Positions 6,060-25,760 are shown, counted from the first letter of the stretch. The stretch: DNA of 64,000 nt from a virus (IMGVR_UViG_3300025875_000007:1-64000); one strand, 5' to 3'. Translations and numbers: made by a program. Notes: generated by a model from the letters alone, not told the origin.

Positions 6060-6558
6060 CTCTTGGGTAAATTACGACGACGAGAAGCTTGATCGTGTTT
6101 ATCTGAGTCGACAGGCTGCAAAGCGTGGTACGGACTTTCACGATCTCGCCCAGCGATGCATCACGCTCAACCAAAGACTTCCTGAGTTCCCAGTTACGAC
6201 TATGGGGCTCTATGTTAACGATGCCATCGGCTTTCGGATGAAGCCTGAGGTTACCCTCTTTTATTCGATTAACGCATTCTGTACAACAGATTGCATTTCG
6301 TTTCGAAAGAACATGCTCCGGATTCACGACCTGAAGATGGGGCTTGGGCACACCTCAGAGCGTCAGCTTGAAGTTTATGCGGCTTACTTCTGTCTCGAGT
6401 ACGGTGTTCGTCCATTCGACATCGAGACCGAACTTCGGATTTATCAGAACAACGAGGCACGGATCTATGAAGCCGATCCTGTGACCATCTCTCTCATTAT
6501 GCAAAAGATCGTTGCGTTCGACAGGCGTATCAATCAGCTTAGGGAGGACTCTGAGTGA
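5998..6558 (+). CDS. PD-(D/E)XK exonuclease (Cas4/RecB-like phage exonuclease)
   Basis: The N-terminal HSFLSASSSSW matches the S(A/P)SSxxRW-type opening of phage exonucleases. IHDLKMG is the D-x-K motif and QLEVYAAY the QhxxY motif. ATG 5998 is the only start upstream of the first motif, which gives a 62-nt overlap. Confidence 0.6.
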   Translation: MRFNDNSKLAGQHSFLSASSSSWVNYDDEKLDRVYLSRQAAKRGTDFHDLAQRCITLNQRLPEFPVTTMGLYVNDAIGFRMKPEVTLFYSINAFCTTDCISFRKNMLRIHDLKMGLGHTSERQLEVYAAYFCLEYGVRPFDIETELRIYQNNEARIYEADPVTISLIMQKIVAFDRRINQLREDSE

Positions 6559-9287
6559 TTTTCCAGTATGAGGATTACATATCGCACTACGGAACTCCTC
6601 GGAAGTCTGGACGATACCCTTGGGGCTCCGGTACGAAAGATGAGAAGATCTATGAGGGAAGTTTTCTAGACATCACGTCTAAGATGGAACGTGATGGCAT
6701 GAAGCCCCTCGAGATCGCAAAAGGGTTCGGTATCACGACGACCCAGCTTCGTGCTCGCAAGACCATCGAGAGCAACGAGCGAAAGAATCAGAAGTTTGCA
6801 GATGTCAAGAAGCTCCATGACAAGCAAATGGGCCCTTCTGCGATTGGTAAGCAGTTAGGTCTTTCTGAGTCTTCTGTTCGCTCTGTGATTGCTTCGATGA
6901 ACAAGGAGCAAAAGGCGAACATCCATACCGTCGCCAAGATTCTTAAAGACGAAGTGGATGAGAAGAAGTACGTTCAGATTGGTACTGGTGTTGAGCATCT
7001 TCCCGTCATGGGCAACATTTCAGCAAACCGTCTGAAGAATGCTGTCGGTATTCTCGAAGAGGATGGCTACACAGTCCATTCTGTACAGGTGGACCAGATT
7101 GGCACTCCTGGACAAAAGACTACCGTTAAGGTTCTTACTCCTCCCGGAACGACGTATCGGGATGTGGACAACAACAAAGAACAAATTCGTCTTCCTGGTA
7201 AGTGGACCGATGATGGTGGCGACACTTTCCACGGTCCCAAGCCTCCTTTGAACATTGACCCTAAGCGGGTTGCGGTTCGATACAAGGAGCAAGGTGGTGA
7301 CGAGGCTGACGGTGTCATCTTTGTTCGTCCTGGCAAAGAAGACATCGCCATTGGCGGAAAGAACTATGCACAGGTTCGTATCGCTGTTGGTGGTACGCAC
7401 TATCTTAAGGGTATGGCCGTTTACAAAGACGACCTGCCTGATGGCGTAGATCTTCTGTTCAATACGAACAAGAGCGATACAGGCAACAAGCTCGACGCCA
7501 TGAAGAAGCAGGAGAAAGATCCGACTACCGCAACAAGGCGGAATCCAGACGGAACGCCCGATTTGGATTCTGCAAAGATTAATGAGACGAATCCCTTCGG
7601 ATCTCAGATTCGTCGGCAGATTCTTGATCTAGAAGGTAAGAAGGCCGTCTCGGCTATGAACCTTCTGGATGAAGAGGGAACTTGGTCTGACTGGAACAAG
7701 TCTCTTTCTTCTCAGGTTCTGTCTAAGCAGTCTCCTGTTCTGGCTAAGCAGCAGCTTGATGTCAAACGTCAGCGTATGAGGGAAGACCTTGACGAGATCA
7801 AGTCTCTGACCAACCCCGTTGTTCGTAAGCACCTTCTTGAGGCCTTTGCTGATGGTGCTGATTCTTCGGCAGTACACCTTGACGCTGCGCACATTCCTCG
7901 TCAGTCAACGCACGTTCTGCTTCCGGTTAAGAGTCTTAAGGCTAGTGAGGTTTACGCACCAAATTACGATGATGGCGAAACGGTTGTTCTGATTCGCTTT
8001 CCTCATGGTGGCAAGTTCGAAATTCCGGAACTCACGGTAAACAACAAGAATCGTGAAGCCATCAAGATGATGGGTAAGCGGCCTCCGGATGCTGTTGGTA
8101 TCAACTCCAAGGTTGCAGAACGACTTTCTGGTGCGGACTTTGATGGGGACACTGTTCTTGTCATTCCGAATAGTCCTAACAACCCTCGTCGTATTCGTAA
8201 CGAGGCAGCACTTAAGTCTTTGCAGGGATTCGATCCTAAGTCATACAAGCTTCCTGATGATGCACCAAAGATGTCTTCGAAGACTAAGGGCATTGAGATG
8301 GGTAAGGTTTCTAACCTTATCACTGACATGACGATTAAGGGTGCCAGCAACGAAGAGCTTGCTCGAGCTGTAAAGCACTCTATGGTAGTCATTGATGCTG
8401 AAAAGCACCATCTCGATTACAACAAGTCTTTTAGAGACCACGCCATTGGGGCTTTGAACGAACGATACATGAATGGGCCTAAGGGTGGAGCTTCGACTCT
8501 GATCTCAAGGGCTACGTCTATGGATCGTGGCGTTGACAAGATGGTTCCTCGTAAGGCATCTGAAGGCGGTCCTATCGATCCTAAGACGGGTCGTAAGATG
8601 CTAGTTCCTGATACCTATCTTACTCGTGATGGTGTTACTATCACTAAGAAGATGGACATTGAAAAGTTAGCGAATACTAATGACGCTTTCTCTTTGGTGT
8701 CTAAGGAACGTACTAAGATCGAGGAAGTTTACGCCGAGCATTCTAATGCTCTTAAAGAGTTTGCTAATGAGGCTCGTAGAGAGGTGTACGCATACAAGCC
8801 TCCTAGAGTAGACCTCAATGCTAAGAAGGTTTATAAGACTGAGGTTGCTAGCCTTGTGTCTAAGCTCAATGTTGCACGAGCTAATAAGCCTTTGGAGAGG
8901 CAGGCTCAACTCTTTGCCAATGCTGTGGTGGCTAAGCAGAAAGAAGCTGATCCCACCATGGATAGGGCTAGGCTTAAGAAGATTGAGGCCCAAGCATTAG
9001 CAACTGCTCGTGCTAGGGTACAGGCTAACAAGCACAAGATTGTACCTACTGATGAAGAGTGGGCCGCCATCCAGGCAAGGGCGGTTACACCTAACCAGCT
9101 TCAGCAGATGCTGTCTAATGCTGACCTAGATGCAGTGCGTACACTTGCTACACCTCGTGCTAGAACGGCTCTATCTCCTGCTAAGATAGCCCGTATCAAT
9201 AGCATGGCTGCACGAGGATTCAATCAGGCTGACATTGCTACTGCTTTGGGCCTATCCCCAGCAGTGGTTAGGGAAGTATTCAACTGA
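6555..9287 (+). CDS. candidate single-subunit two-barrel RNA polymerase (YonO-like) with fused HTH domains
   Basis: aa 279-304, GGTHYLKGMAVYKDDLPDGVDLLFNT, resembles the beta DPBB motif GRHGNKG...DMP..G..DIVLNP. aa 478-537, VLIRFPHGG...AVGINSKVAERLSGADFDGDTVLV, resembles the beta-prime NRAPTLHR...NADFDGDQMAV (ADFDGD at nt 8133-8150). HTH-like segments sit at aa ~50-70, ~92-115 and ~884-906. Confidence 0.6.
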   Translation: MIFQYEDYISHYGTPRKSGRYPWGSGTKDEKIYEGSFLDITSKMERDGMKPLEIAKGFGITTTQLRARKTIESNERKNQKFADVKKLHDKQMGPSAIGKQLGLSESSVRSVIASMNKEQKANIHTVAKILKDEVDEKKYVQIGTGVEHLPVMGNISANRLKNAVGILEEDGYTVHSVQVDQIGTPGQKTTVKVLTPPGTTYRDVDNNKEQIRLPGKWTDDGGDTFHGPKPPLNIDPKRVAVRYKEQGGDEADGVIFVRPGKEDIAIGGKNYAQVRIAVGGTHYLKGMAVYKDDLPDGVDLLFNTNKSDTGNKLDAMKKQEKDPTTATRRNPDGTPDLDSAKINETNPFGSQIRRQILDLEGKKAVSAMNLLDEEGTWSDWNKSLSSQVLSKQSPVLAKQQLDVKRQRMREDLDEIKSLTNPVVRKHLLEAFADGADSSAVHLDAAHIPRQSTHVLLPVKSLKASEVYAPNYDDGETVVLIRFPHGGKFEIPELTVNNKNREAIKMMGKRPPDAVGINSKVAERLSGADFDGDTVLVIPNSPNNPRRIRNEAALKSLQGFDPKSYKLPDDAPKMSSKTKGIEMGKVSNLITDMTIKGASNEELARAVKHSMVVIDAEKHHLDYNKSFRDHAIGALNERYMNGPKGGASTLISRATSMDRGVDKMVPRKASEGGPIDPKTGRKMLVPDTYLTRDGVTITKKMDIEKLANTNDAFSLVSKERTKIEEVYAEHSNALKEFANEARREVYAYKPPRVDLNAKKVYKTEVASLVSKLNVARANKPLERQAQLFANAVVAKQKEADPTMDRARLKKIEAQALATARARVQANKHKIVPTDEEWAAIQARAVTPNQLQQMLSNADLDAVRTLATPRARTALSPAKIARINSMAARGFNQADIATALGLSPAVVREVFN

Positions 9288-9583
9288 TGGAAGGAAGGGT
9301 AATGGCTGATACAGTAATTGAGCAAATGCTTAGCACAGTAGACAACCCATTCAATCCATTCCATCAGTTCAAAGAATGGCATCAATGGGATACACATGCT
9401 GGGTACCACACACTGGGTTACCTAGCCCGCATTGCAGTGGTATCGCCTGATCTGTCAGAGGCTGACTACAATCGTATCGTTGATGATGCAATGGAAGAGA
9501 TTGTAGCAGAGAACCTATATGGTGTGCACTGCAGGGTGACACCACTGACCAAGACACCACTGATGACACAGGCTGCAGCATAG
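9287..9583 (+). CDS. conserved phage protein of unknown function
   Basis: Track ORF coupled to the upstream stop; alternative ATG at 9302 after GGAAGG. I recall the DNPFNPFHQFKEW motif from other Gram-positive phage proteins. Confidence 0.6.
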   Translation: MEGRVMADTVIEQMLSTVDNPFNPFHQFKEWHQWDTHAGYHTLGYLARIAVVSPDLSEADYNRIVDDAMEEIVAENLYGVHCRVTPLTKTPLMTQAAA

Positions 9584-9590
9584 ACACCCC

Positions 9591-9842
9591 CATGCTGTAG
9601 CATGGCATGGCACGCCATGCATAGCACCACCCTTGCTGCCTACCAACCGATGCATACATTGGTCGGTTGGTAGGCAGTCAAGTATTCCTCACACAATTAT
9701 TCATGATGTCGCAATAGACGACGCAATTAATTATGAATAGTTGTGTGAGGAATACATGGCCTCTCGCCGTTTGCAACTTAACGGACACATCGGACATATG
9801 AGATAGGGGGGGGAGGGGGGTCTTCGCAAACCCACCCCCCTC
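9591..9842. repeat. cluster of five inverted repeats/hairpins in a non-coding gap
   Basis: CATGCT-GT-AGCATG at 9591-9604. GCATGGC-AC-GCCATGC at 9605-9620. 15-bp stem CTGCCTACCAACCGA/TCGGTTGGTAGGCAG at 9636-9677. 23-nt arms (22/23) at 9682-9704 and 9733-9755. G-run/C-run hairpin GAGGGGGG/CCCCCCTC at 9813-9842. Confidence 0.6.
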
Positions 9843-9935
9843 TTCCATCGCTGCCCTCCTATATTTTCCCCCGGCGGGAATTTTCGTGGGAGGTTTTCAT
9901 GATCATCTTCGGCGGGGTGCCTCAGGAGACAACCC

Positions 9936-10100
9936 ATGGACAAGCACTACCTAGCCCATCTACTTGAGATGTATCCCGTCGAGCACTTCCGAAGTCGCCT
10001 GAGTGAAGTCGTGGCCGTCTCGGATGCTAAGAAGCTCGGGGCCCGAAAGCAGTATGAGAAGAACAGGCAACGGAGGAGCCGCGACAGTGAGCATCGCTGA
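9936..10100 (+). CDS. small basic protein (54 aa), hypothetical
   Basis: ATG 9936 to TGA 10098-10100: MDKHYLAHLLEMYPVEHFRSRLSEVVAVSDAKKLGARKQYEKNRQRRSRDSEHR. It is below the track size cutoff. Confidence 0.35.
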   Translation: MDKHYLAHLLEMYPVEHFRSRLSEVVAVSDAKKLGARKQYEKNRQRRSRDSEHR

Positions 10101-10551
10101 TCCAGTTAGAGTAGAAGCGTTGCATAAGTCTGGTCTCTTACGTCATGACTTAGGTAAGCGCCTTGACATCCTGTGCGAAACCGCAACCGAGCTTGTAGGA
10201 TGTCCTGTCTCCTACATCAACCTTCTTGACAAAGAGCAGCAGTACACTGTTGGTAGCTATCCACCAAGGGTTCGCAAAAGCAGCAAGGTAGAAACTACCG
10301 GTTGTGAAGAAGTGATCGCTTCAAAGAATGTCGTCAACGTACCAGACACTCGTTTGCATCCTGTAATGTGTATGCGAGAGTTCGTGACCGTTGCGGGTAT
10401 GTTGGCCTACCTCGGTGTTCCAGTTCTTTATGGAAAGCAAGTGGTTGGATCGTTCTGTGCGTTGGACTATGAGCCACGCGAATGGGCGTTCTGGCAAGTC
10501 GAGGCTCTTAAGGGTCTCGCAAGTTTAACATCAGCCGCCGCGCTGAGATAG
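10087..10551 (+). CDS. stand-alone GAF-domain protein
   Basis: DPVRVEALHKSGLL...LDILCETATELVGCPVSYINLLDKEQQYTVGS...VPDTRLHP...YLGVPVLYGKQVVGSFCALDYEPREW follows the bacterial GAF pattern. GTG 10087 lies 9 nt after GGAGGA; the track ORF opens at 10003. Confidence 0.7.
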   Translation: MSIADPVRVEALHKSGLLRHDLGKRLDILCETATELVGCPVSYINLLDKEQQYTVGSYPPRVRKSSKVETTGCEEVIASKNVVNVPDTRLHPVMCMREFVTVAGMLAYLGVPVLYGKQVVGSFCALDYEPREWAFWQVEALKGLASLTSAAALR

Positions 10552-15855: not shown

Positions 15856-16479
15856 GTGAGCGATAGTATTCTAATCAGTACCAAGAAGGCTCTGGACGTT
15901 CCAGAAAACTATGATGTCTTCGACCAAAACATCATTATGCACATCAACAGCGTGTTCTCAACTCTGTCTCAGCTTGGTATTGGTCCCGAAGAGGGATTTG
16001 AGATTGAGGATGACACTTCACTGTGGAGTCACTTCCTTGGCGGCAACGCAAAGTTCAACTTTGTAAAGACTTACATGTTCCTGCAAGTCAAGTTGCTCTT
16101 TGATCCTCCTGGTACATCGTTTCTTCAAGATTCAATCAAGGAGAAGATCAAAGAACTTGAGTATCGAATTGTTACCGAGGTAGAAACGCGTTCAACAAGA
16201 ATTAAGAGCGCGTTTAAGAGAATTAGTGCGAACCGTGGTGACGAACTTCGAGTTCATGTCGCAAATCCTGCAGGAAAAACTTATATCGATGATGCGGGAT
16301 CATACGAGGCGGTCTTTGTGCCATTGGGTGGGACGCGGGAAAGAAGCGCTAGTCTTGACACATCAAACAAGGCTAGAGGTGTTTTGTATCTAATGGTCAA
16401 TGTTGAAGACGGCACGTATACAGTTCGCAGGTTAAGTCCTAGGCGTACTATTCTCGTACTCGAGGTGAATGCAGAATGA
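15856..16479 (+). CDS. hypothetical structural-module protein (N-terminus resembles gp6-type head-tail connector)
   Basis: GTG after [40 protein letters not shown] resembles connector N-termini. Confidence 0.5.
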
Positions 16480-17771
16480 GTGGGTTTTTAGAACCACAGG
16501 TGGAAGTGTCGATTGACGGTCAGGAAGGACCTCCGGGGCCCATGGGACCACCAGGTCCTGCCGGGCCTCCCGGTTCTGATGGACCTCCTGGTCCTACTGG
16601 AGCAGATTCAACGATTCCAGGTCCACAAGGTCCACAAGGTCCTAGTGGGCCTCCTGGTCCTGAGGGTCTTGAGGGCGCGCCGGGACCCACGGGTGCCGAT
16701 TCAACCGTTCCGGGCCCTGCCGGTCCGGAAGGCCCCGAGGGTCCTCCAGGTCCTGCTGGTGCTGATTCAACTGTTCCGGGTCCCGCTGGTCCGGAAGGTC
16801 CTGAGGGTCCTGCCGGTCCCGAAGGTCCTACAGGTCCTGCTGGTGCTGACTCAACTGTTCCGGGTCCTGCTGGTCCAACGGGTCCCGAAGGTCCTGCAGG
16901 TCCTGCTGGTGCTGACTCAACGGTTCCGGGTCCTGTTGGTCCAACGGGTCCCGAAGGTCCTGAGGGTCCTGTCGGTCCTGAGGGTCCGGAAGGTCCTCCC
17001 GGACCTGCTGGTGCTGACTCAACTGTTCCGGGTCCTCCTGGTCCCGAAGGTCCGGAGGGCCCCAAAGGAGACACGGGAGATACAGGTCCTCAGGGTCCTC
17101 CCGGTCCTGCGGGAGAAGATGGTACGGGCGGTTCTTCTGGTTACCCCATGGTGGGTGGTTTTAGCGCTCGTGGTCCTGGCGATATTTCTATTGACGCCTG
17201 GGGTCCGATGGCTATGCTTTCAAAGAGCAGCTCTAGCCAGGCGGGAGGACTAGACCAAGGAGGCGCTTTTCTACAGATTGGAAGTGGAACTTCCACTGGA
17301 ACGGCGGTGCAGTATCAAATCAATACCGCCATTGCTCGTCGAGACGCAATGAGTCATTTGACTTTTCGGTTTACACTTGAACAGCTTGTTGCGCAGCGCT
17401 TTGTTCTTGGATTTATGTCTGACTTTTCCGTATCCGTTCTGACTGGTACCTATGCGATTCTTGAGTTCGACACAAACAATAGTGACACCACGTTTAAGTT
17501 CGTTAGCGCTATTACTGGTTCACGTACGGTGGTTGATACATTAGTCTCTCCTGGTCCAGGTAGTATTTTAGATTTAGACATCGAACTTCTTTCGAATGGA
17601 ACAAAGATGTCTCTTACAGATCTATCTGGTGCTGTTTTGGCTACCCATACCTTTGCCGATGCAGAAAGCGTTCCCCCAACCACTCCGCTTGAGATGGGTA
17701 TTGGTATCTTAAATCGGGAGGCCGCAGCCAAGGTGCTCAAGATGTACCGAGGCGTTTTGCGCCATCGATAA
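16476..17771 (+). CDS. collagen-like (Gly-X-Y) repeat protein with a globular C-terminal domain
   Basis: About 200 aa of uninterrupted GPxGPx triplets, punctuated six times by GADST(V/I)PGP, then a ~210-aa non-repetitive domain. Confidence 0.85.
16524..17130 (+). repeat. tandem coding repeats (collagen triplets; GADSTVPGP-containing units)
   Basis: GCTGA(T/C)TCAAC(T/G)GTTCCGGGTCC recurs about every 60-100 nt. Both other frames stay open, which produces shadow ORFs 16513..17253 and 16520..17074(-). Confidence 0.8.
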
Positions 17772-17810: not shown

Positions 17811-18353
17811 ATGGCCTTTGTAGATGACTTTTTAGAGCATTACGGCACCAAAGGTATGAAGTGGGGCGTTCGAAAGAAGAGTAAGCCTCGTCCAGCTTTC
17901 ATGCCGCCCGTTAAGTCTGGTTCTGGGAAGCCAAAATGGCAGTCGCCTCCGGCTAAAAAGGTTGCTACACCAACACCTTCGGCTCCGAGAAAGGTAAAGC
18001 CAACCCTTTTACCTTTCCAAAAAAAGAAGACGCCAAAGGTTCTCTCCGAGGAAGCGCAGCAGTTCCGCGATATTCGAGCAAAGGCTAAGCGTGATGGTGT
18101 TTCGGCACTGTCCAACAAGGAGCTTGAGCTGATCAATAAGCGCCTCGAGTTGCAGTCGAAGTACAATAAGGCGTTTCCCAAGAAGAAGAATCCTTTTGTG
18201 GAAGTGGCCATCGATGGAATTCTTTCCGACTACGGAACCAAAACCGTTGTTAAATTGGTAAAGGACAAGAACCCCGTGATGGGCCTTGCCGTCGAAGCGG
18301 CGCTGGAGCTCAACAAGCAATCCCGTAAGGGTAACTCGTCTAAGAACAAGTAG
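17811..18353 (+). CDS. Lys-rich protein with N-terminal HYGxxGMKWG motif
   Basis: MAFVDDFLEHYGTKGMKWGVRKKSKPRP. GGAAGGAGGG RBS. Confidence 0.7.
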   Translation: MAFVDDFLEHYGTKGMKWGVRKKSKPRPAFMPPVKSGSGKPKWQSPPAKKVATPTPSAPRKVKPTLLPFQKKKTPKVLSEEAQQFRDIRAKAKRDGVSALSNKELELINKRLELQSKYNKAFPKKKNPFVEVAIDGILSDYGTKTVVKLVKDKNPVMGLAVEAALELNKQSRKGNSSKNK

Positions 18354-18362
18354 GAGGATCGC

Positions 18363-18827
18363 ATGGATGTTTCAGACGCACCTGCTAGTCAGGGAATTAT
18401 GATTGCGTTCCTCCCGACGAATGCTGAATGGTGTAGCATGGAGCTTCCGCATATGACGCTCGTCTATGCGGGAACTACCGATAAGCGAACCCCAAGTGAT
18501 TTCAGCGCACTTGCGAAGGACGCATCAACAGTAGCTATGCTGTTTAGGCCTTTTGTTCTTCCTGTTATGGATCTCGCTGTTTTCGGCGAAGAGGATAAGG
18601 TCGATGTTCTGCGATTTCGTCTAACGCCAGAGCTGCTGGCGGCTAGACGTATTGTCGAAAAGTGGAACATGAGCCAACATTCGTTCAGGCCACATGCAAC
18701 AATTGGTCCAGCACAAACACATGTAGATGTTCGAGATTTTCCTCGAATGGTTCGCTTCGACCGACTCATGGTTGGTTGGGGCAACGAACATTTGACGTTT
18801 AATCTGAACAATAGATACGAGGATTGA
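18363..18827 (+). CDS. 2H phosphoesterase superfamily protein (LigT-like / Acb1-like)
   Basis: Two H-x-T motifs at the expected spacing: PHMTLVY and RPHATIGP. 154 aa. Confidence 0.65.
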   Translation: MDVSDAPASQGIMIAFLPTNAEWCSMELPHMTLVYAGTTDKRTPSDFSALAKDASTVAMLFRPFVLPVMDLAVFGEEDKVDVLRFRLTPELLAARRIVEKWNMSQHSFRPHATIGPAQTHVDVRDFPRMVRFDRLMVGWGNEHLTFNLNNRYED

Positions 18828-18841
18828 AGGGAGGGTTGGCG

Positions 18842-20590
18842 ATGGGTTTATCTAATACCGCAGTACCAAGATATTACGGTGAGTTTCGAGATGCAGTTCT
18901 AGATGGCGAGATTCCTGTAAATCGGGAAATCGCACTAGAGATGAATCGTATTGATGCACTCATCGCCAACCCGAACATCTATTACGACGACATGGCAGTG
19001 GAAGGTTTCATTCTCTATTGTGAGAAAGAACTTACCCTGACTGATGGAGGTGATCTGAATCTGCTCCCCTCATTCAAGGTGTGGGCGGAGCAAATCTTTG
19101 GCTGGTACTACTTCGTTGAGCGAAGTGTGTATGAGCCAGACCCAGACAACCGAGGCGGACGCTACGTCACCAAGACGATCCGAAAGCGTCTGACCACCAA
19201 GCAGTACTTGATTGTGGCTCGTGGAGCCGCCAAGTCCATGTATGCCGCTTGCATTCAGGCATACTACTTGAATGTTGATACAGACACCACGCACCAAATT
19301 ACAACTGCGCCAACCATGAAGCAGGCCGACGAGGTTATGTCGCCGTTTCGAACTGCGATTGTTCGTGCTCGAGGTCCTCTCTTCAAGTTCCTCACTGAGG
19401 GCTCGATGCAGAATACAACGGGCTCTAAGGCGATGCGTGTGAAGCTCGCATCGACAAAGAAGGGTATCGAGAACTTCCTTACGGGATCGATTCTCGAGAT
19501 CCGACCGATGGCAATCAACAAACTTCAGGGACTCCGTCCCAAAGTGTCCACAATCGATGAGTGGCTTTCGGGCGACCTTCGTGAGGATGTCGTTGGTGCG
19601 GTCGAACAGGGCGCGTCGAAGCTTGACGATTACCTTATTGTGGCTATCAGTTCCGAGGGTACTGTCCGTAACGGATCTGGTGACACAATCAAGATGGAGT
19701 TGGCTGACATCCTCAAGGGTGACTATCTTGCTCCTCATATTTCGATCTGGCACTACAAGCTTGATGAGCTGGAAGAAGTAAACGAGCCCGAGACATGGTT
19801 GAAGGCCAACCCCAATTTGGGAAAGACCGTCACTTACGAGACGTATCATTTGGATGTTGAGCGAGCTGAGAAGGCTCCTGCATCACGTAACGATATTCTC
19901 GCTAAGCGATTCGGTATTCCTATGGAGGGGTACACATACTTCTTCACGTACGAGGAGACTCTCCCCGACGAGCGCAAGCGAAGCTTCTGGAACATGCCTT
20001 GTTCTTTGGGTGCTGACCTTTCTCAGGGTGATGACTTCTGTGCATTCACTTTCCTGTTCCCGCTCTCTCGTGGAGCATTTGGCGTTAAGACTCGCAGCTA
20101 TATCACCTCTCTAACGTTAATGAAGCTACCGGGTGCTATGCGAGCAAAGTATGAAGAGTTTATCCGAGAGGGTAGCCTTCACGTTCTTGAAGGCACCATC
20201 CTTGACATGATGGATGTGTATGACGATCTCGATCGTTATATTCAGCATGAAAATTGGGATGTGCGAACCTTCGGATTTGACCCATACAACGCCAAGGAAT
20301 TTGTTGCACGTTGGGAAACCGAGAACGGCCCCTTTGGCATCGAGAAGGTTATTCAGGGAGCTCGGACGGAATCAGTTCCTCTGGGCGAGCTTAAGATTCT
20401 TGCCTCGGAAGGGCTGCTTCTCTTCGACCAGTCGTTGATGCAGTTTGCTATGGGTAACGCCATCACGCTTGAAGACACAAACGGTAACCGAAAGCTTCTT
20501 AAGAAGCGACAAGACGAGAAGATTGATAATGTGGCGGCCCTTATGGATGCCTACATTGCATGGAAGGCCAACAAGGAGGCGTTTGAGTAA
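18842..20590 (+). CDS. terminase large subunit
   Basis: Size and position upstream of the portal. P-loop-like VARGAAKS. ATG 18842 follows AAGGGAGGG; the track ORF opens at TTG 18824. Confidence 0.85.
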   Translation: MGLSNTAVPRYYGEFRDAVLDGEIPVNREIALEMNRIDALIANPNIYYDDMAVEGFILYCEKELTLTDGGDLNLLPSFKVWAEQIFGWYYFVERSVYEPDPDNRGGRYVTKTIRKRLTTKQYLIVARGAAKSMYAACIQAYYLNVDTDTTHQITTAPTMKQADEVMSPFRTAIVRARGPLFKFLTEGSMQNTTGSKAMRVKLASTKKGIENFLTGSILEIRPMAINKLQGLRPKVSTIDEWLSGDLREDVVGAVEQGASKLDDYLIVAISSEGTVRNGSGDTIKMELADILKGDYLAPHISIWHYKLDELEEVNEPETWLKANPNLGKTVTYETYHLDVERAEKAPASRNDILAKRFGIPMEGYTYFFTYEETLPDERKRSFWNMPCSLGADLSQGDDFCAFTFLFPLSRGAFGVKTRSYITSLTLMKLPGAMRAKYEEFIREGSLHVLEGTILDMMDVYDDLDRYIQHENWDVRTFGFDPYNAKEFVARWETENGPFGIEKVIQGARTESVPLGELKILASEGLLLFDQSLMQFAMGNAITLEDTNGNRKLLKKRQDEKIDNVAALMDAYIAWKANKEAFE

Positions 20591-21144
20591 TGATACTCAA
20601 TGAAACCAAACCGCCTCTGGCGGAGGCTGTGGACCTGGCACACTACGGAGTGCCAGGCATGAAGTGGGGGCGTCGTAAGGGTCGTTCGTCTAACGACGAG
20701 GACTATGACGATATGCTTGAGCAGGAGAGACACGAACGCAACAAGCGAATTGTTGCTGGAAGCGCTCTTGCTGCCGTTGGCGCGGTTGCTACGGTAGCCG
20801 TTCTACATAAGACCGGCGTTGTTAAAATCAATCCCGATCTCATTGCTAAGGGCAAGGAAGCCGCAGCTAAGCTTCGCGAGTCATCTGAGAAAGAGACAAC
20901 TCGCGGTAAGATTCCGTTCAACGCGGCTGCTGACGCATATAAAAAGTCTCGTGAACGGTACAAAGATTCTGACTTTGCAAAGCGTACGTTCGAGCCCGAT
21001 CGTGCTAACCCTCTTTGGCGCGTTGATAAAACAAAGACTCCGTTAGCTACCAGTCTTGCCGACGTGCTTTTGGGTAGAGGTGTTCACACGATTCACACAT
21101 TAAACAACGACGTTTGGGCCACTCCAGTCGGCAGAAAGAGGTGA
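20590..21144 (+). CDS. protein with HYGxxGMKWG motif and one TM
   Basis: LAHYGVPGMKWGRRKGRSSN. TM IVAGSALAAVGAVATVAVL. It lies between terminase and portal. Confidence 0.7.
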   Translation: MILNETKPPLAEAVDLAHYGVPGMKWGRRKGRSSNDEDYDDMLEQERHERNKRIVAGSALAAVGAVATVAVLHKTGVVKINPDLIAKGKEAAAKLRESSEKETTRGKIPFNAAADAYKKSRERYKDSDFAKRTFEPDRANPLWRVDKTKTPLATSLADVLLGRGVHTIHTLNNDVWATPVGRKR

Positions 21145-21147
21145 CGT

Positions 21148-22506
21148 ATGGCAGTACTAGGTACTCTTAGGCACGCCTGGAATGCGTTCCTCGACCAGCC
21201 GGGTCCAGATCCAGTTCGTGGTAACGCGCTGTCGAATTCGAGCTTTGGCATGGCGAGCTATTCGACCCGCCCTGATCGCAGCCCTCGCAATATGTCAAAT
21301 GAGCGATCTCTCGTCTCATCGATTTACACTCGCTTGGGTATCGATGTCGCGTCTATCGAAATGCGGCATGTTCGACTGGATGATAACGGCCGGTTCGCTG
21401 AGGAAATTGACAGTGGACTCAATAACTGTCTCAAGCTCGAGGCGAACATCGACCAGGCCGCCAGTCATTTCGTGCAGGATATTGCAAACACCCTCTTCAA
21501 CGAAGGTATTACTTGTCTTGTTCCGGTAGACACGGATCTGGATCCGTCAGAGTCTTCCGGATTCAACATCAAGACTATTCGTGTGGGCACGGTTGTTCAG
21601 TGGTTCCCTCGCAAGGTTCGGGTCAGTCTTTACAACGACCAAACGGGCCGACGTGAGGAGCTGACGCTAGATAAGAGTTTCGTTTCGATTATTGAGAATC
21701 CGTTCTATGCGGTGATGAACGAGCCGAACTCCACTCTTCAGCGTCTGATCCGGAAGCTCAATATTCTGGACGCCATTGACGAGCAATCTGGTTCTGGAAA
21801 GCTCGACATCATTATCCAGCTGCCGTACGTCGTTAAGTCTGAGGCACGCAAGCAGCAGGCAGAGCAGCGTCGTACGGACATTGAGGTTCAACTCAAGAGC
21901 AGCAAGTATGGTGTGGCTTACACCGATGGCACCGAGAAGATCACGCAGCTTAACCGACCGGTTGAGAATAACCTGCTCGCACAGGTTCAGTATCTGACTG
22001 AGATGCTATATTCTCAGCTCGGTCTGACCAAGGACCTTATTGATGGTAAGGCCACCGAAGAGGTCATGCTCAACTATTACAACCGTACAGTCGAGCCGAT
22101 TGTTCGGGCGATTGTTGAGGGTATGCGTCGATCCTTCCTGACAAAGACCGCTCGTTCTCAGAAGCAGTCTATTCTATATTTCCGTGATCCATTCAAGCTG
22201 GTGCCGGTTGGTAATCTGGCTGAGATTGCGGATAAGCTTGCTCGTAACGAGGTTCTTTCCTCTAACGAGATTCGTGGACTGCTCGGCTTCAAGCCGTCGT
22301 CGGAGCCAAAGGCCGATCAGCTGATCAACGCCAACATGCCGGTGAGTATGACTGGTGTTGGTGGGGCTACTGCTGAGGTTGTCGAGGGCGAGGTTGTTCC
22401 TACTGCTGCCATTGAAGCTGCACCTGCTCCTGAGCCCGCTCCTGATCCTGAGCTCGAAAGTCTTGAACTTGAACTGGAAGGCCTGGAATTGGAGTTGGAG
22501 CAATGA
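21148..22506 (+). CDS. portal protein
   Basis: 452 aa and immediately after the terminase region. Acidic (ELE)n C-terminus. Confidence 0.75.
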   Translation: MAVLGTLRHAWNAFLDQPGPDPVRGNALSNSSFGMASYSTRPDRSPRNMSNERSLVSSIYTRLGIDVASIEMRHVRLDDNGRFAEEIDSGLNNCLKLEANIDQAASHFVQDIANTLFNEGITCLVPVDTDLDPSESSGFNIKTIRVGTVVQWFPRKVRVSLYNDQTGRREELTLDKSFVSIIENPFYAVMNEPNSTLQRLIRKLNILDAIDEQSGSGKLDIIIQLPYVVKSEARKQQAEQRRTDIEVQLKSSKYGVAYTDGTEKITQLNRPVENNLLAQVQYLTEMLYSQLGLTKDLIDGKATEEVMLNYYNRTVEPIVRAIVEGMRRSFLTKTARSQKQSILYFRDPFKLVPVGNLAEIADKLARNEVLSSNEIRGLLGFKPSSEPKADQLINANMPVSMTGVGGATAEVVEGEVVPTAAIEAAPAPEPAPDPELESLELELEGLELELEQ

Positions 22507-23129
22507 GAACGGTAGACGAGTTTCTAACAGACGTTCTTCAGCACGAGTACGACCCGGTTAAGGCTCGCGAGTACTACCTTCGTACTCGAAAGCTTAAGGG
22601 ACGTAAGCGTAAGCGAGTTGAAGAGGACGAAGTTCCTATGAAGTCGCGTACCGGCGCAAAGCTGGTTGACTTCGATGGAGCTAACGGTGGGCGCGCCGTG
22701 TATGAGGACGGCAGCACCTATGATGGTGACGGATGGGATTCCGATACCAAGGGCAAGGGGCGCGGTTTAGATCGCTCCGAGCGATTCAGTAATGTGCAAA
22801 AGGGCATTGACTCTGTTCGAGCCAGTGTGCTTAAGAACATTAAGGATCCTGCCAAGCAAAAGGCTCGGTTGGCTCAGCTTGATGACCTTCAGCGTCGAAC
22901 CAACGCAGCGAAGGCGAAGGCTATTACAACTCGGAAGCCGACCGCTAAGGAAAGTTCCGATGCTCGTGCAGCGGTAAATAAGACTCAAGCCGCCATCAAT
23001 AAGCTTCGTGCTGGCGCAAAAAATTTCAAGAATGAAGCCGCTAGGAACGCGTACTTGGACAAGGTTGATGACATGCAGGAACGTCTCAACAAGACAAAGA
23101 CGCGACTTAAGATGAAGGCTGGGTCTTAA
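22503..23129 (+). CDS. K/R/A-rich helical protein (scaffold or internal-protein candidate), paralog A
   Basis: Its N-terminus DEFLTDVLQHEYDPVKAREYYLRTRKLKGRKRK is shared with the next gene. Confidence 0.65.
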   Translation: MRTVDEFLTDVLQHEYDPVKAREYYLRTRKLKGRKRKRVEEDEVPMKSRTGAKLVDFDGANGGRAVYEDGSTYDGDGWDSDTKGKGRGLDRSERFSNVQKGIDSVRASVLKNIKDPAKQKARLAQLDDLQRRTNAAKAKAITTRKPTAKESSDARAAVNKTQAAINKLRAGAKNFKNEAARNAYLDKVDDMQERLNKTKTRLKMKAGS

Positions 23130-23169: not shown

Positions 23170-23637
23170 ATGACAGACGTCGGAGAGTTCATCGACGATT
23201 TCCTACAGCATGACTACGACCCTGTTAAGGCTCGCGAGTACTACCTTCGTACTCGGAAGCTGAAGGGTCGTGCGGTCAAGAAGGTCAAGCAGCTTGCTGA
23301 CAAGGCCTGGGAGACCGATAAGGAGTACAGCGCAAAGGTCAATAAGGCTGCCGGGCAGCTGAACAGGGATCGAGCCCTGGCTAAGGCTGCTCGTAAAGAG
23401 CGTCTTGCTATGCAGCAGCGCAGGATCGATCAGGCCCGCGCAAAGGCACGCAAGGTCAAGGACCCGAAGAAGCGAGGTCTTGTCGAGAGGAAGCTTGATG
23501 CTCTCGAAAAGCGCCTTAAGAGTGGCTTCGGCAATGCCAAGCTCAGTCGGTCTAAGTCCAAGCCTCTTGGTGACATCAAGCTTGGAAAGCCCAAGAACCC
23601 CTTCGCGGGCGCCAAGCTTAGTCGGACTAAGTCATGA
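23170..23637 (+). CDS. K/R/A-rich helical protein, paralog B
   Basis: N-terminus GEFIDDFLQHDYDPVKAREYYLRTRKLKGRAVKK. A 32-nt DNA stretch is identical to paralog A. Confidence 0.65.
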   Translation: MTDVGEFIDDFLQHDYDPVKAREYYLRTRKLKGRAVKKVKQLADKAWETDKEYSAKVNKAAGQLNRDRALAKAARKERLAMQQRRIDQARAKARKVKDPKKRGLVERKLDALEKRLKSGFGNAKLSRSKSKPLGDIKLGKPKNPFAGAKLSRTKS

Positions 23638-23699: not shown

Positions 23700-25760
23700 A
23701 TGGAAGCTGATTTCAGCGGTTACGCCACAAAGGCTGGCCTCAAGTGCTCCGACGGTCGGACCATCACTGCCGAGGCATTCAAGCACATGGACGGCATGAC
23801 CGTCCCGCTTGTTTGGCAGCATGGTCACGACAAGCCGGATAACATTCTGGGCCACGCAATTCTTGAGGCTCGCTCTGATGGGATGTACGCCTACGGTTTC
23901 TTCAATGGGACCACGCAGGGCCAGAACTCTGCTCTTCTGGTGCAGCACGGCGACATCAAGAACCTTTCGATTTACGCCAACCAGCTCAAGGAGACCCTGG
24001 TTCAGGGTAGCAAGAATGTCATTCACGGTGTGATCCGTGAGGTCAGTCTTGTTCTGTCTGGTGCCAATCCTGGTGCACTGATTGACCAGGTCCGGATCGC
24101 TCACAGCAGCGACCCGGATGACATCGAGGTTCTCGAGGACGCTGCTATTATCTTCACGGATGCTGAGCTTCAGCACTCTGATGAGGGTGACGACAGCGAG
24201 AACTCCGACGAGAACAACGATGACGACGATGACGAGGGCGACCTTGACCAGCTCGAGGCTGAGCTGGATGAGGTTGAGGCTGAGGTCGGTACGCCCGACG
24301 TCGCGCACGCCGAGTCTGACGATGATGAGGAGAAGACTGTCCAGGACATCTACGACTCGATGACCGAAGAGCAGCAGGCCGTCGTTCACATGATGGTTGG
24401 GGCAGCCCTCGAGGCCGCCGATGTTGAGCACAGCAACACCGACAGTGACACCAACACAGCAGACAACACTGACGAGGGTAACCTCAGCCACCAGGAAGGT
24501 ACGGACAACATGGGTAACGTTTTCGACCAGGGCAAGAGCAAGGCCTCCGAGGGCATCGTGCTTTCACACTCGGACGTCAAGGAGATCGTCGACAACGCCA
24601 AGGAGCTCGGCTCCTTCAAGTCGGCAATTGAGAGCTACGCGCTCTCGCACGGCATCGAGAACATCGAGCTGCTGTTCCCGGACGCCCAGCTGACGGGTGG
24701 GATGAACGTCCTGCAGCGTCGCACCGAGTGGGTCGCGCAGGTCATGGACGCGGTCAAGAAGTCCCCGTTCTCGCGCATCAAGAGCATTGGCGCGGACATC
24801 ACGGCCGACGAGGCTCGTGCGCGTGGTTACGTTCGTGGTAACCTGAAGAAGGAGGAGATCATCAAGCTCCTCCGTCGCGTTACGACCCCGACCACGATCT
24901 ACAAGAAGCAGAAGCTCGACCGCGATGACATCGTGGACATCACCGAGCTGGACGTCGTTGCTTGGCTCAAGGCCGAGATGCGCGTCATGCTCGAGGAGGA
25001 GCTGGCCACCGCTCTGCTCATCGGTGACAGCCGCGAGCCCGACGACCTCGACAAGATCGACGAGGAGAAGCTTCGTCCGATCGCGTACGACAACGAGGTC
25101 TACGCCCACCCGGTTACTCTGCCGTCGAACACCACGGCCGACGCGCTGGTCGAGTCCGTTCTGCGGGCTCGTAAGCACTACAAGGGCACGGGTCAGCCCA
25201 CGTTCTACACCACGGATGACATCCTCACGGACATGATCCTGGTCAAGGACAAGATGGACCGTCGTCTGTACAAGACGGAGGAGGAGCTGGCTGCGGCGAT
25301 GCGCGTTGCGCGTATCGTGGTTGTCGAGACCATGGAGCGCGCTCCGGACGTCCTCGGCATCATGGTCAACCTCGCGGACTACACCCTGGGTGCGGACCGT
25401 GGCGGCGCCATCTCGATGTTCGAGGACTTCGACATCGACTACAACCAGCAGAAGTACCTCATCGAGACGCGTGTCTCGGGTGCCCTGACCAAGTTCAAGG
25501 CTGCTGTCGTCATCAAGCGTACCTCTGGTACGACTGTTGTCGCGACCGCTCCCGCCTACAACGAGGCCACGGACACCATCACGATCCCGTCCGTCACCGG
25601 CGTCGTGTACTACGACGTCACCGACGCGGGCAACGAGGTTGTTGTTCCTGCCGGTCCGCTCGTCATCACCCGCACCACGGACATCGAGGCTCGTCCGTCG
25701 GCCGGTTACTCGTTCGCCCACAACACGGACAACGACTGGACGTACGCGTACGTCGCCTAG
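23700..25760 (+). CDS. prohead protease / major capsid protein fusion (HK97-type)
   Basis: The N-terminal VPLVWQHGHDKPDNILGH ... EVSLVLSGANPGA matches the prohead serine protease pattern. A ~100-aa D/E-rich linker follows, then a ~400-aa capsid-sized domain. Confidence 0.75.
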   Translation: MEADFSGYATKAGLKCSDGRTITAEAFKHMDGMTVPLVWQHGHDKPDNILGHAILEARSDGMYAYGFFNGTTQGQNSALLVQHGDIKNLSIYANQLKETLVQGSKNVIHGVIREVSLVLSGANPGALIDQVRIAHSSDPDDIEVLEDAAIIFTDAELQHSDEGDDSENSDENNDDDDDEGDLDQLEAELDEVEAEVGTPDVAHAESDDDEEKTVQDIYDSMTEEQQAVVHMMVGAALEAADVEHSNTDSDTNTADNTDEGNLSHQEGTDNMGNVFDQGKSKASEGIVLSHSDVKEIVDNAKELGSFKSAIESYALSHGIENIELLFPDAQLTGGMNVLQRRTEWVAQVMDAVKKSPFSRIKSIGADITADEARARGYVRGNLKKEEIIKLLRRVTTPTTIYKKQKLDRDDIVDITELDVVAWLKAEMRVMLEEELATALLIGDSREPDDLDKIDEEKLRPIAYDNEVYAHPVTLPSNTTADALVESVLRARKHYKGTGQPTFYTTDDILTDMILVKDKMDRRLYKTEEELAAAMRVARIVVVETMERAPDVLGIMVNLADYTLGADRGGAISMFEDFDIDYNQQKYLIETRVSGALTKFKAAVVIKRTSGTTVVATAPAYNEATDTITIPSVTGVVYYDVTDAGNEVVVPAGPLVITRTTDIEARPSAGYSFAHNTDNDWTYAYVA

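Follow-up and report, generated by a model that had tools for sequence, protein, structure and literature searches.

Why should short proteins that are otherwise unrelated begin with the same peptide, and why should their genes stand on either side of a phage terminase gene? The question is raised by a stretch of viral DNA of 64,000 nucleotides (IMGVR_UViG_3300025875_000007:1-64000, referred to in the following as the window), part of an 86.8-kb metagenome contig, in which the proteins gp17811 and gp20590 share an N-terminal HYG-x2-GMKWG signature. An initial annotation also saw this signature, in expanded form, on the RNA polymerase candidate gp6555, and suggested that it might be a capsid-targeting or processing signal, in which case the polymerase could be packaged and injected. 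All three proteins carry the sequences attributed to them there, and the gene positions confirm that gp17811 and gp20590 flank the gene for the large terminase subunit (TerL) just upstream of the portal gene (Table 1). We propose that the peptide, which Pfam lists as DUF7211, may be a disordered short linear tag for the incorporation of accessory proteins into the virion in the 1706-like siphovirus supercluster. This reading stands, in our judgement, at about even chances; the polymerase probably uses a variant of the tag, a statement that we make with less confidence than that on the tag itself.

The Pfam family DUF7211 (PF23847) is a hidden Markov model of 25 positions with a gathering score of 27 bits, and both gp17811 and gp20590 score above it. 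A regular-expression scan of the window finds exactly two strict copies of the motif, one in each of these proteins. Likewise, a profile built from 36 copies and run against the 849 six-frame open reading frames (ORFs) of the window retrieves gp17811 with 62.4 bits (E 8e-19) and gp20590 with 43.5 bits (E 6e-13), and no other significant match. The motif shared by the two proteins is thus far beyond chance, and it is all that they share: a short N-terminal peptide common to unrelated proteins. In gp17811, it is followed by a K/P-rich disordered linker, a helical module of the form ALSNKELxxLxxRxxLxxxY (aa 80-121) and C-terminal helices; the family alignment shows this ALSNKEL-type stretch as a second conserved motif. 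In gp20590, the layout of which matches that of ReqiPoco6 gp020, it is followed by one strongly hydrophobic, transmembrane-like helix (aa 54-72, nt 20749-20805; mean Kyte-Doolittle score over 19 residues 2.28).

By homology, the window phage belongs to the 1706-like supercluster. This group has been described to comprise phages of Streptomyces (cluster BI), Arthrobacter (AM/AU/AW), Gordonia (DJ) and Rhodococcus (CC), together with Microbacterium EL, Lactococcus 1706-like and Faecalibacterium FP_oengus phages, and its signature gene is a putative YonO/RdRP-like polymerase flanked by helix-turn-helix (HTH) domains (Koert et al., bioRxiv 10.1101/842583). TerL of the window has about 73% nucleotide identity to the terminases of Gordonia (cluster DJ), Streptomyces and Arthrobacter phages, and the entire head module of the supercluster, including a protease-capsid fusion, is present. 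A tblastn search with a 27-aa peptide retrieved the motif 863 times from 223 phage records, some four copies per genome, and all of these records belong to the supercluster. The initial annotation had correctly placed it on uncharacterised proteins in the head regions of other Gram-positive phages, and the pattern is in fact much stronger than it had stated.

We scanned six cultured genomes, those of ReqiPoco6, Qui, Mossy, Count, Rima and Lactococcus 1706. Between TerL and the portal, the motif stands at the start of six of seven genes in ReqiPoco6, eight of nine in the Arthrobacter phage Qui, five of six in Mossy, four of five in Count and all three in Rima. A further copy lies upstream of TerL in each of these phages, internally in gp015 of ReqiPoco6, in gp015 of Qui and in the corresponding gene of the other three. 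The window follows the same arrangement with its one TerL-to-portal gene, gp20590, and with gp17811 upstream of TerL, and in Lactococcus 1706 the protein encoded directly upstream of TerL, ORF7, bears two degenerate copies. The number of tagged genes accordingly ranges from four to nine per genome in the cultured actinophage relatives, whereas 1706 has this single two-copy protein. The synteny is also kept in three of three divergent metagenomic contigs, which have a gene for an HTH (polymerase-type) protein of about 900 aa upstream of the head module where the locus extends that far; in one of them, L020, the polymerase-type N-terminal peptide could be read.

Beyond cultured phages, a profile search of 1.84 billion representative sequences returned 27,773 matches at E<=1e-3, while a word-indexed homology search with the motif alignment gave 16 short, uninformative fragments. 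The best 149 of the 27,773 matches contain one to four motif copies per protein, 147 of them two to four, so that the motif is not strictly N-terminal but also occurs internally in polyproteins. The 56 longest of these 149 all match DUF7211, and their partner domains in Pfam are 2H phosphoesterases (25 proteins), GNAT acetyltransferases (three), LysM (one) and CW_7 (one). A typical polyprotein starts with a 2H phosphoesterase, continues with repeated units of motif plus domain, and ends with a last motif and the helical ALSNKEL module, which corresponds to gp17811. The window has a split version of this arrangement: gp17811 resembles the C-terminal part of ReqiPoco6 gp015 (E 4e-9) and the 2H phosphoesterase gp18363 resembles its residues 23-149 (E 1e-6). 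Together, they are the split, order-swapped counterpart of a single gene, represented by ReqiPoco6 gp015 and by Mossy gp13 (annotated as 'RNA ligase'), the 2H domain being fused N-terminally to the gp17811-type module in the relatives. As a side observation, another peptide, F-[DN]-E-S-x-V-x-R-D-x-x-G-x-F-A-K, is repeated two to four times between the modules of the largest metagenomic DUF7211 polyproteins (P0249, P0282).

The consensus of the DUF7211 peptide is [VI]-D-D-F-L-x-H-Y-G-[VT]-K-G-M-K-W-G-V-R-K, with six invariant positions (H, G, G, M, W, G). Where copies within a genome have the same residue, they use the same codon in just 25-57% of cases, which argues for selection on the peptide at the protein level rather than on a DNA or RNA element; a DNA-level repeat or recombination site was rejected on the same grounds, the synonymous sites being scrambled. 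At the variable positions, copies are more similar within a genome than between genomes (0.666 vs 0.524, permutation p<=5e-4), and all nine copies in Qui, including that of the gp17811 orthologue, read GMKWGK[RH]. This concerted evolution suggests that the copies serve one common, co-evolving partner or receptor. On its own, the peptide is predicted to be disordered: in an AlphaFold2 model of gp17811 (40-sequence alignment), residues 1-30 have no secondary structure and a confidence (pLDDT) of about 54, as compared to 94-96 for the helical hairpin at aa 80-121. Two further ideas on its nature were discarded. A single hydrophobic helix lies 35-45 residues after the motif in roughly one of the tagged proteins of each genome (in three of them in Qui), gp20590 among them, and in 25 of the 149 polyproteins; with so few cases, the motif is not a general membrane-targeting signal. 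A type VII secretion signal of the WXG type was rejected as well, since the motif has a W-G and not a W-x-G spacing.

Candidate processing sites may connect the peptide to capsid maturation. The major capsid protein of the window, gp23700, is fused to a protease and a scaffold domain, and its acidic linker (aa ~135-300, nt 24105-24599) contains four H-[SA]-[DEN] tripeptides, at aa 159, 203, 244 and 290 (in the contexts LQHSD, VAHAE, VEHSN and LSHSD). There are none elsewhere in gp23700, and the pattern occurs once in nine other window proteins (3,262 aa in total). In nine relatives, seven cultured and two metagenomic, the fusion protein has two to five such sites, and in the five cultured relatives checked, the last site lies just before the N-arm of the capsid domain. 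We regard these tripeptides as candidate cleavage sites of the prohead protease. The linker also bears a helical repeat, TVQDIYDSMTEEQQAVVHMMVGAALE, of which the linkers of relatives have one to four copies, and some DUF7211 polyproteins carry both the repeat and an H-[SA]-[DEN] site. Among 335 internal motif copies, such a site precedes HYG by 9-11 aa in 18% of cases, where 4.2% would be expected, and a relaxed pattern does so in 40% (9.9% expected). Cleavage about 10 aa upstream of the internal copies would leave each module with an N-terminal tag, as in the split genes, and cleavage by the prohead protease would place the polyproteins inside the procapsid, where this protease acts.

A virion location also fits the only product labels that bear on it. 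In the GenBank record of phage 1706 (EU081845.1), both orf7, with its two motif copies, and orf75, the polymerase homologue with the N-terminus QHYGTKRHSGRYPWGSG, were deposited as 'structural protein', which is suggestive but not proof; the 'structural' labels in Pepy6 and Poco6 were assigned only by similarity to these 1706 entries. The capsid-targeting or processing signal of the initial annotation is favoured in part. Speaking for it are the disorder of a peptide with six invariant positions, the protein-level selection, the concerted evolution, the cargo-like domains, the candidate sites and the 1706 labels; less favourable are the half-similarity of the polymerase peptide and the internal position of many copies, and that the peptide causes incorporation, like its receptor, the cleavage sites and the ejection, is something that we infer.

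The tag could work as follows. The procapsid would be built from the portal and the protease-scaffold-capsid fusion protein, and proteins encoded around the TerL gene would dock via the peptide on one conserved site in its interior, on the portal, which is a candidate receptor, or on the scaffold or capsid part. Such docking would enclose the tagged proteins before DNA packaging. In polyproteins of fused modules, the prohead protease would cut at H-[SA]-[DE] about ten residues upstream of each peptide, so that every module would start with its tag, and the cargo would later leave the head together with the DNA. The predicted cargo includes 2H phosphoesterases, GNAT acetyltransferases and wall-binding LysM and CW_7 modules, as well as one single-pass membrane protein per genome (gp20590 in the window) and the helical gp17811-type module. 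Finally, gp6555 is probably recruited in a related way by a variant tag with a second half of its own, and would then transcribe early genes on entry.

The part of gp6555 in this scheme needs to be considered separately. The protein has a DFDGD catalytic-loop motif at aa 528 and full-length homology to its family, the two features (DxDGD and full-length homology) by which we recognise the YonO/RdRP-like two-barrel class; HHpred had previously placed this family in the RdRP family, as a putative RNA polymerase (Koert et al., bioRxiv 10.1101/842583). Its N-terminal peptide, EDYISHYGTPRKSGRYPWGSG (aa 6-26, nt 6570-6632), is nearly invariant in 121 homologues, with the consensus ED-x-L-x-HYG-x-P-R-x-SGRYPWGSG. 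A profile-profile comparison (hhalign) aligns it with DUF7211 over 13 columns (xxDxLxHYGxxx) with a probability of 80.5% and a P value of 1.3e-5. In cultured phages, the polymerase peptide reads EDDYLAHYGILRRSGRYPWGSG, as compared to VDNFLAHYGVKGMKWGV in the DUF7211 copies that these phages carry, with D-D-[YF]-L-A-H-Y-G-[IV] common to both. At the level of sequence profiles, the likeness is therefore genuine, though limited to the first half (D-D-[FY]-L-x-H-Y-G-[VIT]), which is common to both; the second half is class-specific. The initial annotation was right about this first half, but the second is a different, polymerase-specific sequence and hence not a simple expansion of DUF7211. In an AlphaFold2 model of residues 1-200, the first 30 residues have a pLDDT below 50, as compared to about 90 for the HTH domains that follow (aa 35-200). 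Of the phage records, 250 contain the polymerase homologue and 223 the motif. The two counts are identical in the five best-represented genera (Arthrobacter 95, Gordonia 55, Streptomyces 54, Rhodococcus 4, Microbacterium 4) and in Faecalibacterium (2), and they agree for the main hosts too. We also considered a parallel, lineage-specific change of the tag and the polymerase peptide, as an aromatic residue is lost from both in Rima; this idea was dropped, since Count departs from the pattern and the genomes are too few.

Two side observations concern the polymerase gene. In cultured relatives, only one small ORF stands between this gene and the 3' cos end, while in the window (6555-10000), left-arm genes follow directly after the two. 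Because of this, the contig appears to be a circular permutation or a concatemer when set against the genome as packaged, which probably has its physical end near 9.6-10 kb of the window. Furthermore, among homologues of gp6555 aa 1-200 (P0051-P0170), the N-terminal module of the polymerase is mostly found as a predicted protein of 150-340 aa. Most of these look like truncations or frameshifts; some are encoded on long contigs (57-170 kb), and some may be stand-alone versions.

Several points weigh against an incorporation tag. The two DUF7211 proteins of the window have no H-[SA]-[DEN] site and therefore show no sign of processing; that these tripeptides are cleaved is itself something we infer, and a site precedes just 18-40% of the internal copies. 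The concerted evolution could partly stem from lineage-specific duplications. Neither a solved structure nor a fold match offers a precedent for the peptide: the PDB yielded no relatives by sequence, whether searched with the motif profile, the capsid fusion or the portal, and Foldseek, run with the models of gp17811 and of the polymerase N-terminus, gave no significant match other than generic winged-helix folds and ReqiPepy6 gp013. Moreover, the virion support consists of two product labels in one GenBank record, and the window proteins are known from sequence alone. Part of this evidence could be accommodated if the peptide were instead a docking or processing signal of the prohead protease for a nearby H-[SA]-[DE], with incorporation being mediated elsewhere in the proteins, for example by the scaffold-like helical repeat or the ALSNKEL module. 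The fixed distance of 9-11 aa, the presence of the same sites in the protease-capsid linker and the occurrence of the linker repeat, which could co-assemble with the scaffold, in some polyproteins would all agree with this. We nonetheless hold it to be unlikely, given that sites are missing from most internal copies and from both window proteins, and that most copies in cultured phages are so close to the start codon (10-25 residues at most) that there is nothing in front of them to be cut off. It also overlaps with an incorporation tag, because the protease acts inside the procapsid and its substrates would have to be there. Somewhat less probable still is that the DUF7211 proteins are assembly or packaging factors outside the virion, for instance a small terminase or regulators of TerL or the portal, and that the motif is a peptide for contacts with TerL or the portal at the time of DNA packaging. 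1706 ORF7, however, was deposited as a structural protein, whereas a small terminase is not part of the virion, and a set that reaches nine tagged proteins per genome and includes enzymes, wall-binding domains and membrane helices does not resemble packaging factors. It is true that the lineage lacks an annotated small terminase, that the gp17811-type gene always adjoins TerL (only the 2H gene intervenes in the window) and that gp17811 combines a basic disordered region with a confidently predicted helical hairpin that could oligomerise; yet its model, a disordered N-terminus plus hairpin, includes no HTH, and no terminase small-subunit family in Pfam or PHROGs matches. The explanation we consider the most improbable is that the peptide binds a component of the cell envelope (peptidoglycan, teichoic acid or membrane) and that the tagged proteins act there at entry or lysis. 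Some multi-motif proteins do have LysM and CW_7 wall-binding domains, though only rarely (2 of 56); a membrane helix is present in one tagged protein of each genome, but in gp20590 the side of this helix on which the motif lies, followed by RRKGR, is predicted to be cytoplasmic. The lysis cassette of the lineage is located just upstream of the TerL-portal region, and the glycine, aromatic and lysine composition of the peptide, which we take to be a loose resemblance, recalls wall-binding repeats; against this, no signal peptides precede the motif, and it is cytoplasmic-type enzymes (2H, GNAT) and a DNA-dependent polymerase-like protein that bear the tag or its variant.

Further objections concern the polymerase. 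gp6555 has no match to the Pfam DUF7211 model at E<=0.01, and it scores just 4.3 bits (E ~1) with the 36-copy profile in the search of the window ORFs. The second half of its peptide, R-x-SGRYPWGSG, is a distinct invariant motif and may bind something else, and, as the model covers the first 200 aa, the peptide could fold back on the body of the enzyme. In cultured relatives, the polymerase gene is furthermore located at the genome end, adjoining cos; if this end enters first, early expression by the host polymerase is possible without packaging. Accordingly, the peptide of gp6555 could be a separate motif, involved for instance in promoter or DNA contacts, autoinhibition or the binding of a host factor, in an enzyme that is made early from the first-entering end and is not packaged. 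The missing DUF7211 match, the invariant core SGRYPWGSG without counterpart in DUF7211 and the extreme position of the gene are what this explanation has in its favour. It does not readily account for the profile-profile match over the common half, for D-D-[YF]-L-A-H-Y-G-[IV] occurring on both kinds of protein within the same phages, or for two peptides that are both N-terminal, invariant and predicted to be disordered; nor does it account for the exact co-occurrence in the main genera and the structural label of 1706 ORF75. We think of a separate polymerase motif as a possibility to be taken seriously, if clearly short of even chances.

In the window, gp17811, gp18363, TerL, gp20590 and the portal follow each other in this order on the same strand; the features discussed here are compiled in Table 1.

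Table 1. Coordinates of the window features, with the matches that identify them
Feature	Length (aa)	Position	Strand	Identification
gp6555, candidate YonO/RdRP-like single-subunit RNA polymerase	910	6555..9287	+	phrog_4291 at aa 4-907, E=0; flanking HTH domains
gp17811	180	17811..18353	+	DUF7211 peptide at aa 4-24 (nt 17820-17882), Pfam 47.7 bits
gp18363, 2H phosphoesterase (LigT-like)	154	18363..18827	+	Pfam 2_5_RNA_ligase2, LigT_PEase; motifs PHMTL and PHATI
TerL, between the two DUF7211 genes		18824..20590	+	Pfam TerL_nuclease, TerL_ATPase; phrog_9
gp20590, sole gene between TerL and portal	184	20590..21144	+	DUF7211 peptide at aa 16-33 (nt 20635-20688), Pfam 35.8 bits
Portal protein		21148..22506	+	Pfam Phage_portal; phrog_12
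gp22503, K/A/R-rich coiled-coil protein, portal-capsid interval		22503-23129	+	paralogue of gp23170, alike in N-terminal signature
gp23170, K/A/R-rich coiled-coil protein, portal-capsid interval		23170-23637	+	paralogue of gp22503, alike in N-terminal signature
gp23700, protease-scaffold-major capsid fusion	686	23700..25760	+	phrog_3270, 3e-232; Peptidase_S78

The two paralogous coiled-coil proteins between portal and capsid, gp22503 and gp23170, may be scaffold-like or internal head proteins. Their common N-terminal signature, ..EF[LI]..LQH[ED]YDPVKAREYYLRTRKLKGR, is a second one in this module; its LQH[ED]YDPVKAREYYLRTRKLKGR part is kept in Poco6, Pepy6, Qui, Count, Rima and two metagenomic relatives. 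The Qui and Count peptides of this type begin with DDF[IL]AHYA, like the first half of DUF7211, and a comparison of the YDPVKAREYY-type peptide with DUF7211 by hhalign gave a weak match (P 0.006). Extending the tag to these proteins leads to a broader and tentative picture, to which we would give well under even chances: a modular address-label system throughout the lineage, in which one disordered peptide of about 20 residues, with three variants sharing a D-D-F-L-x-H-Y start, would load exchangeable cargo into the head for co-injection, the fused prohead protease cutting the polyproteins at H-[SA]-[DE]. The DUF7211 variant would label accessory proteins, the SGRYPWGSG variant the polymerase and the YDPVKAREYY variant the portal-proximal coiled-coil proteins, and the cargo would comprise a number of enzymes together with a membrane-channel protein and the single-subunit RNA polymerase of the YonO-like type.

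Some neighbouring genes are recorded here for completeness. Directly upstream of gp17811, positions 16476-17771 encode a collagen-repeat protein of 431 aa with six Collagen stretches and matches to tail-fibre PHROGs; it is preceded, in the gene calls of the contig, by a Phage_connect_2 protein (15856-16479). The same gene calls have a 154-aa protein with GAF/GAF_2 matches in Pfam (~10087-10551) between the polymerase gene and the head module, a small-molecule-binding domain that is unusual for a phage.

If the tag has the proposed role, a function could be assigned to a Pfam family with more than 27,000 sequence clusters, and the variable gene array between terminase and portal in this lineage would be explained. 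Injected anti-host enzymes (2H phosphoesterases and acetyltransferases) would be predicted, as would a virion-carried YonO-like RNA polymerase in easily cultured siphoviruses, whose hosts are Arthrobacter, Gordonia, Streptomyces, Rhodococcus, Microbacterium, Lactococcus and Faecalibacterium. The 'bring your own polymerase' strategy of N4 and crAss-like phages would then reach siphoviruses of Gram-positive hosts, and if the address labels exist as outlined above, hundreds of cultured actinophages as well as lactococcal phages would begin infection with a virion polymerase. The tag might also serve to load foreign proteins into phage heads, and the idea can be tested directly in existing phage collections.

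It is already known that DUF7211 exists as a catalogued domain of unknown function, and the polymerase family has been described; the connection between motif and polymerase, the genomic rule and the link to maturation are new. In Pfam, of which gp17811 and gp20590 are members by score, the family is a conserved 25-residue HYG...GMKWG peptide without an assigned function, whereas the genomic rule, the polyproteins and the polymerase link come from the present analysis. A literature search for DUF7211 and GMKWG returned nothing relevant, so that these points and the proposed role were not found in the searchable literature, and the motif goes unmentioned in the genome papers of Klyczek (2017) and Jacobs-Sera (2020).

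How does such a tag compare with established systems? In phage T4, a capsid-targeting sequence on the internal proteins IPI-III and on Alt, a short N-terminal peptide on unrelated proteins, leads them into the prohead, where this cargo is processed by the prohead protease, to be injected with the DNA. Encapsulin cargo-loading peptides and the C-terminal targeting segment of the HK97 protease are short disordered peptides that bind the interior of HK97-fold shells. DUF7211 is similar to the latter in being a short disordered peptide on diverse cargo, but they are C-terminal and unrelated to it in sequence. With T4, it shares the short N-terminal peptide on otherwise unrelated proteins of one phage; the T4 signal, however, is removed after targeting, at L/I-x-E, and has no sequence similarity to DUF7211, while the candidate sites of DUF7211 lie upstream of the tag, which would therefore be kept. 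The lineage also differs from T4 in being siphoviral, with a protease-capsid fusion. The T4 capsid-targeting sequence is among the subjects reviewed in PMC9026906.

The polyproteins call to mind the polyvalent and MuF-fused effectors, which are encoded among head genes and for which packaging, processing and injection have been predicted (Iyer, Burroughs, Anand, de Souza and Aravind, 2017; PMC5512222). Both are multidomain phage proteins from the head region with 2H phosphoesterase and GNAT-like effector domains, but the DUF7211 modules are joined by a repeated 20-aa peptide instead of LPD domains and are mostly separate genes in cultured phages. Pfam shows no MuF, portal-fusion or metallopeptidase domain in the window proteins or the 56 multi-motif proteins, and Phage_Mu_F has no match in gp17811, gp20590 and gp22503 (Pfam, PHROGs) or in these 56. 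If polyvalent proteins are taken as those that are encoded among virion genes and have at least two effector-type domains per polypeptide, the single-module proteins of the window are not among them, while metagenomic homologues such as P0282 (2H, LysM and three motifs) are.

Lastly, RNA polymerases carried in virions have been described as the N4 vRNAP, the YonO-like gp66 of crAss-like phages and the tape-measure-fused polymerase of P23-45 (PMC10770324; PMC11445570). The class of gp6555, YonO/RdRP-like with two barrels, is that of crAss gp66 (Koert et al., bioRxiv 10.1101/842583), and in the gp6555 family, the single indication of virion presence is the label of 1706 ORF75. By analogy with these systems, gp6555 would be a phage polymerase brought along in the virion to express early genes; where they are podoviruses or use a fusion to the tape measure, it would be a 910-aa, HTH-flanked enzyme travelling in the head of a siphovirus.

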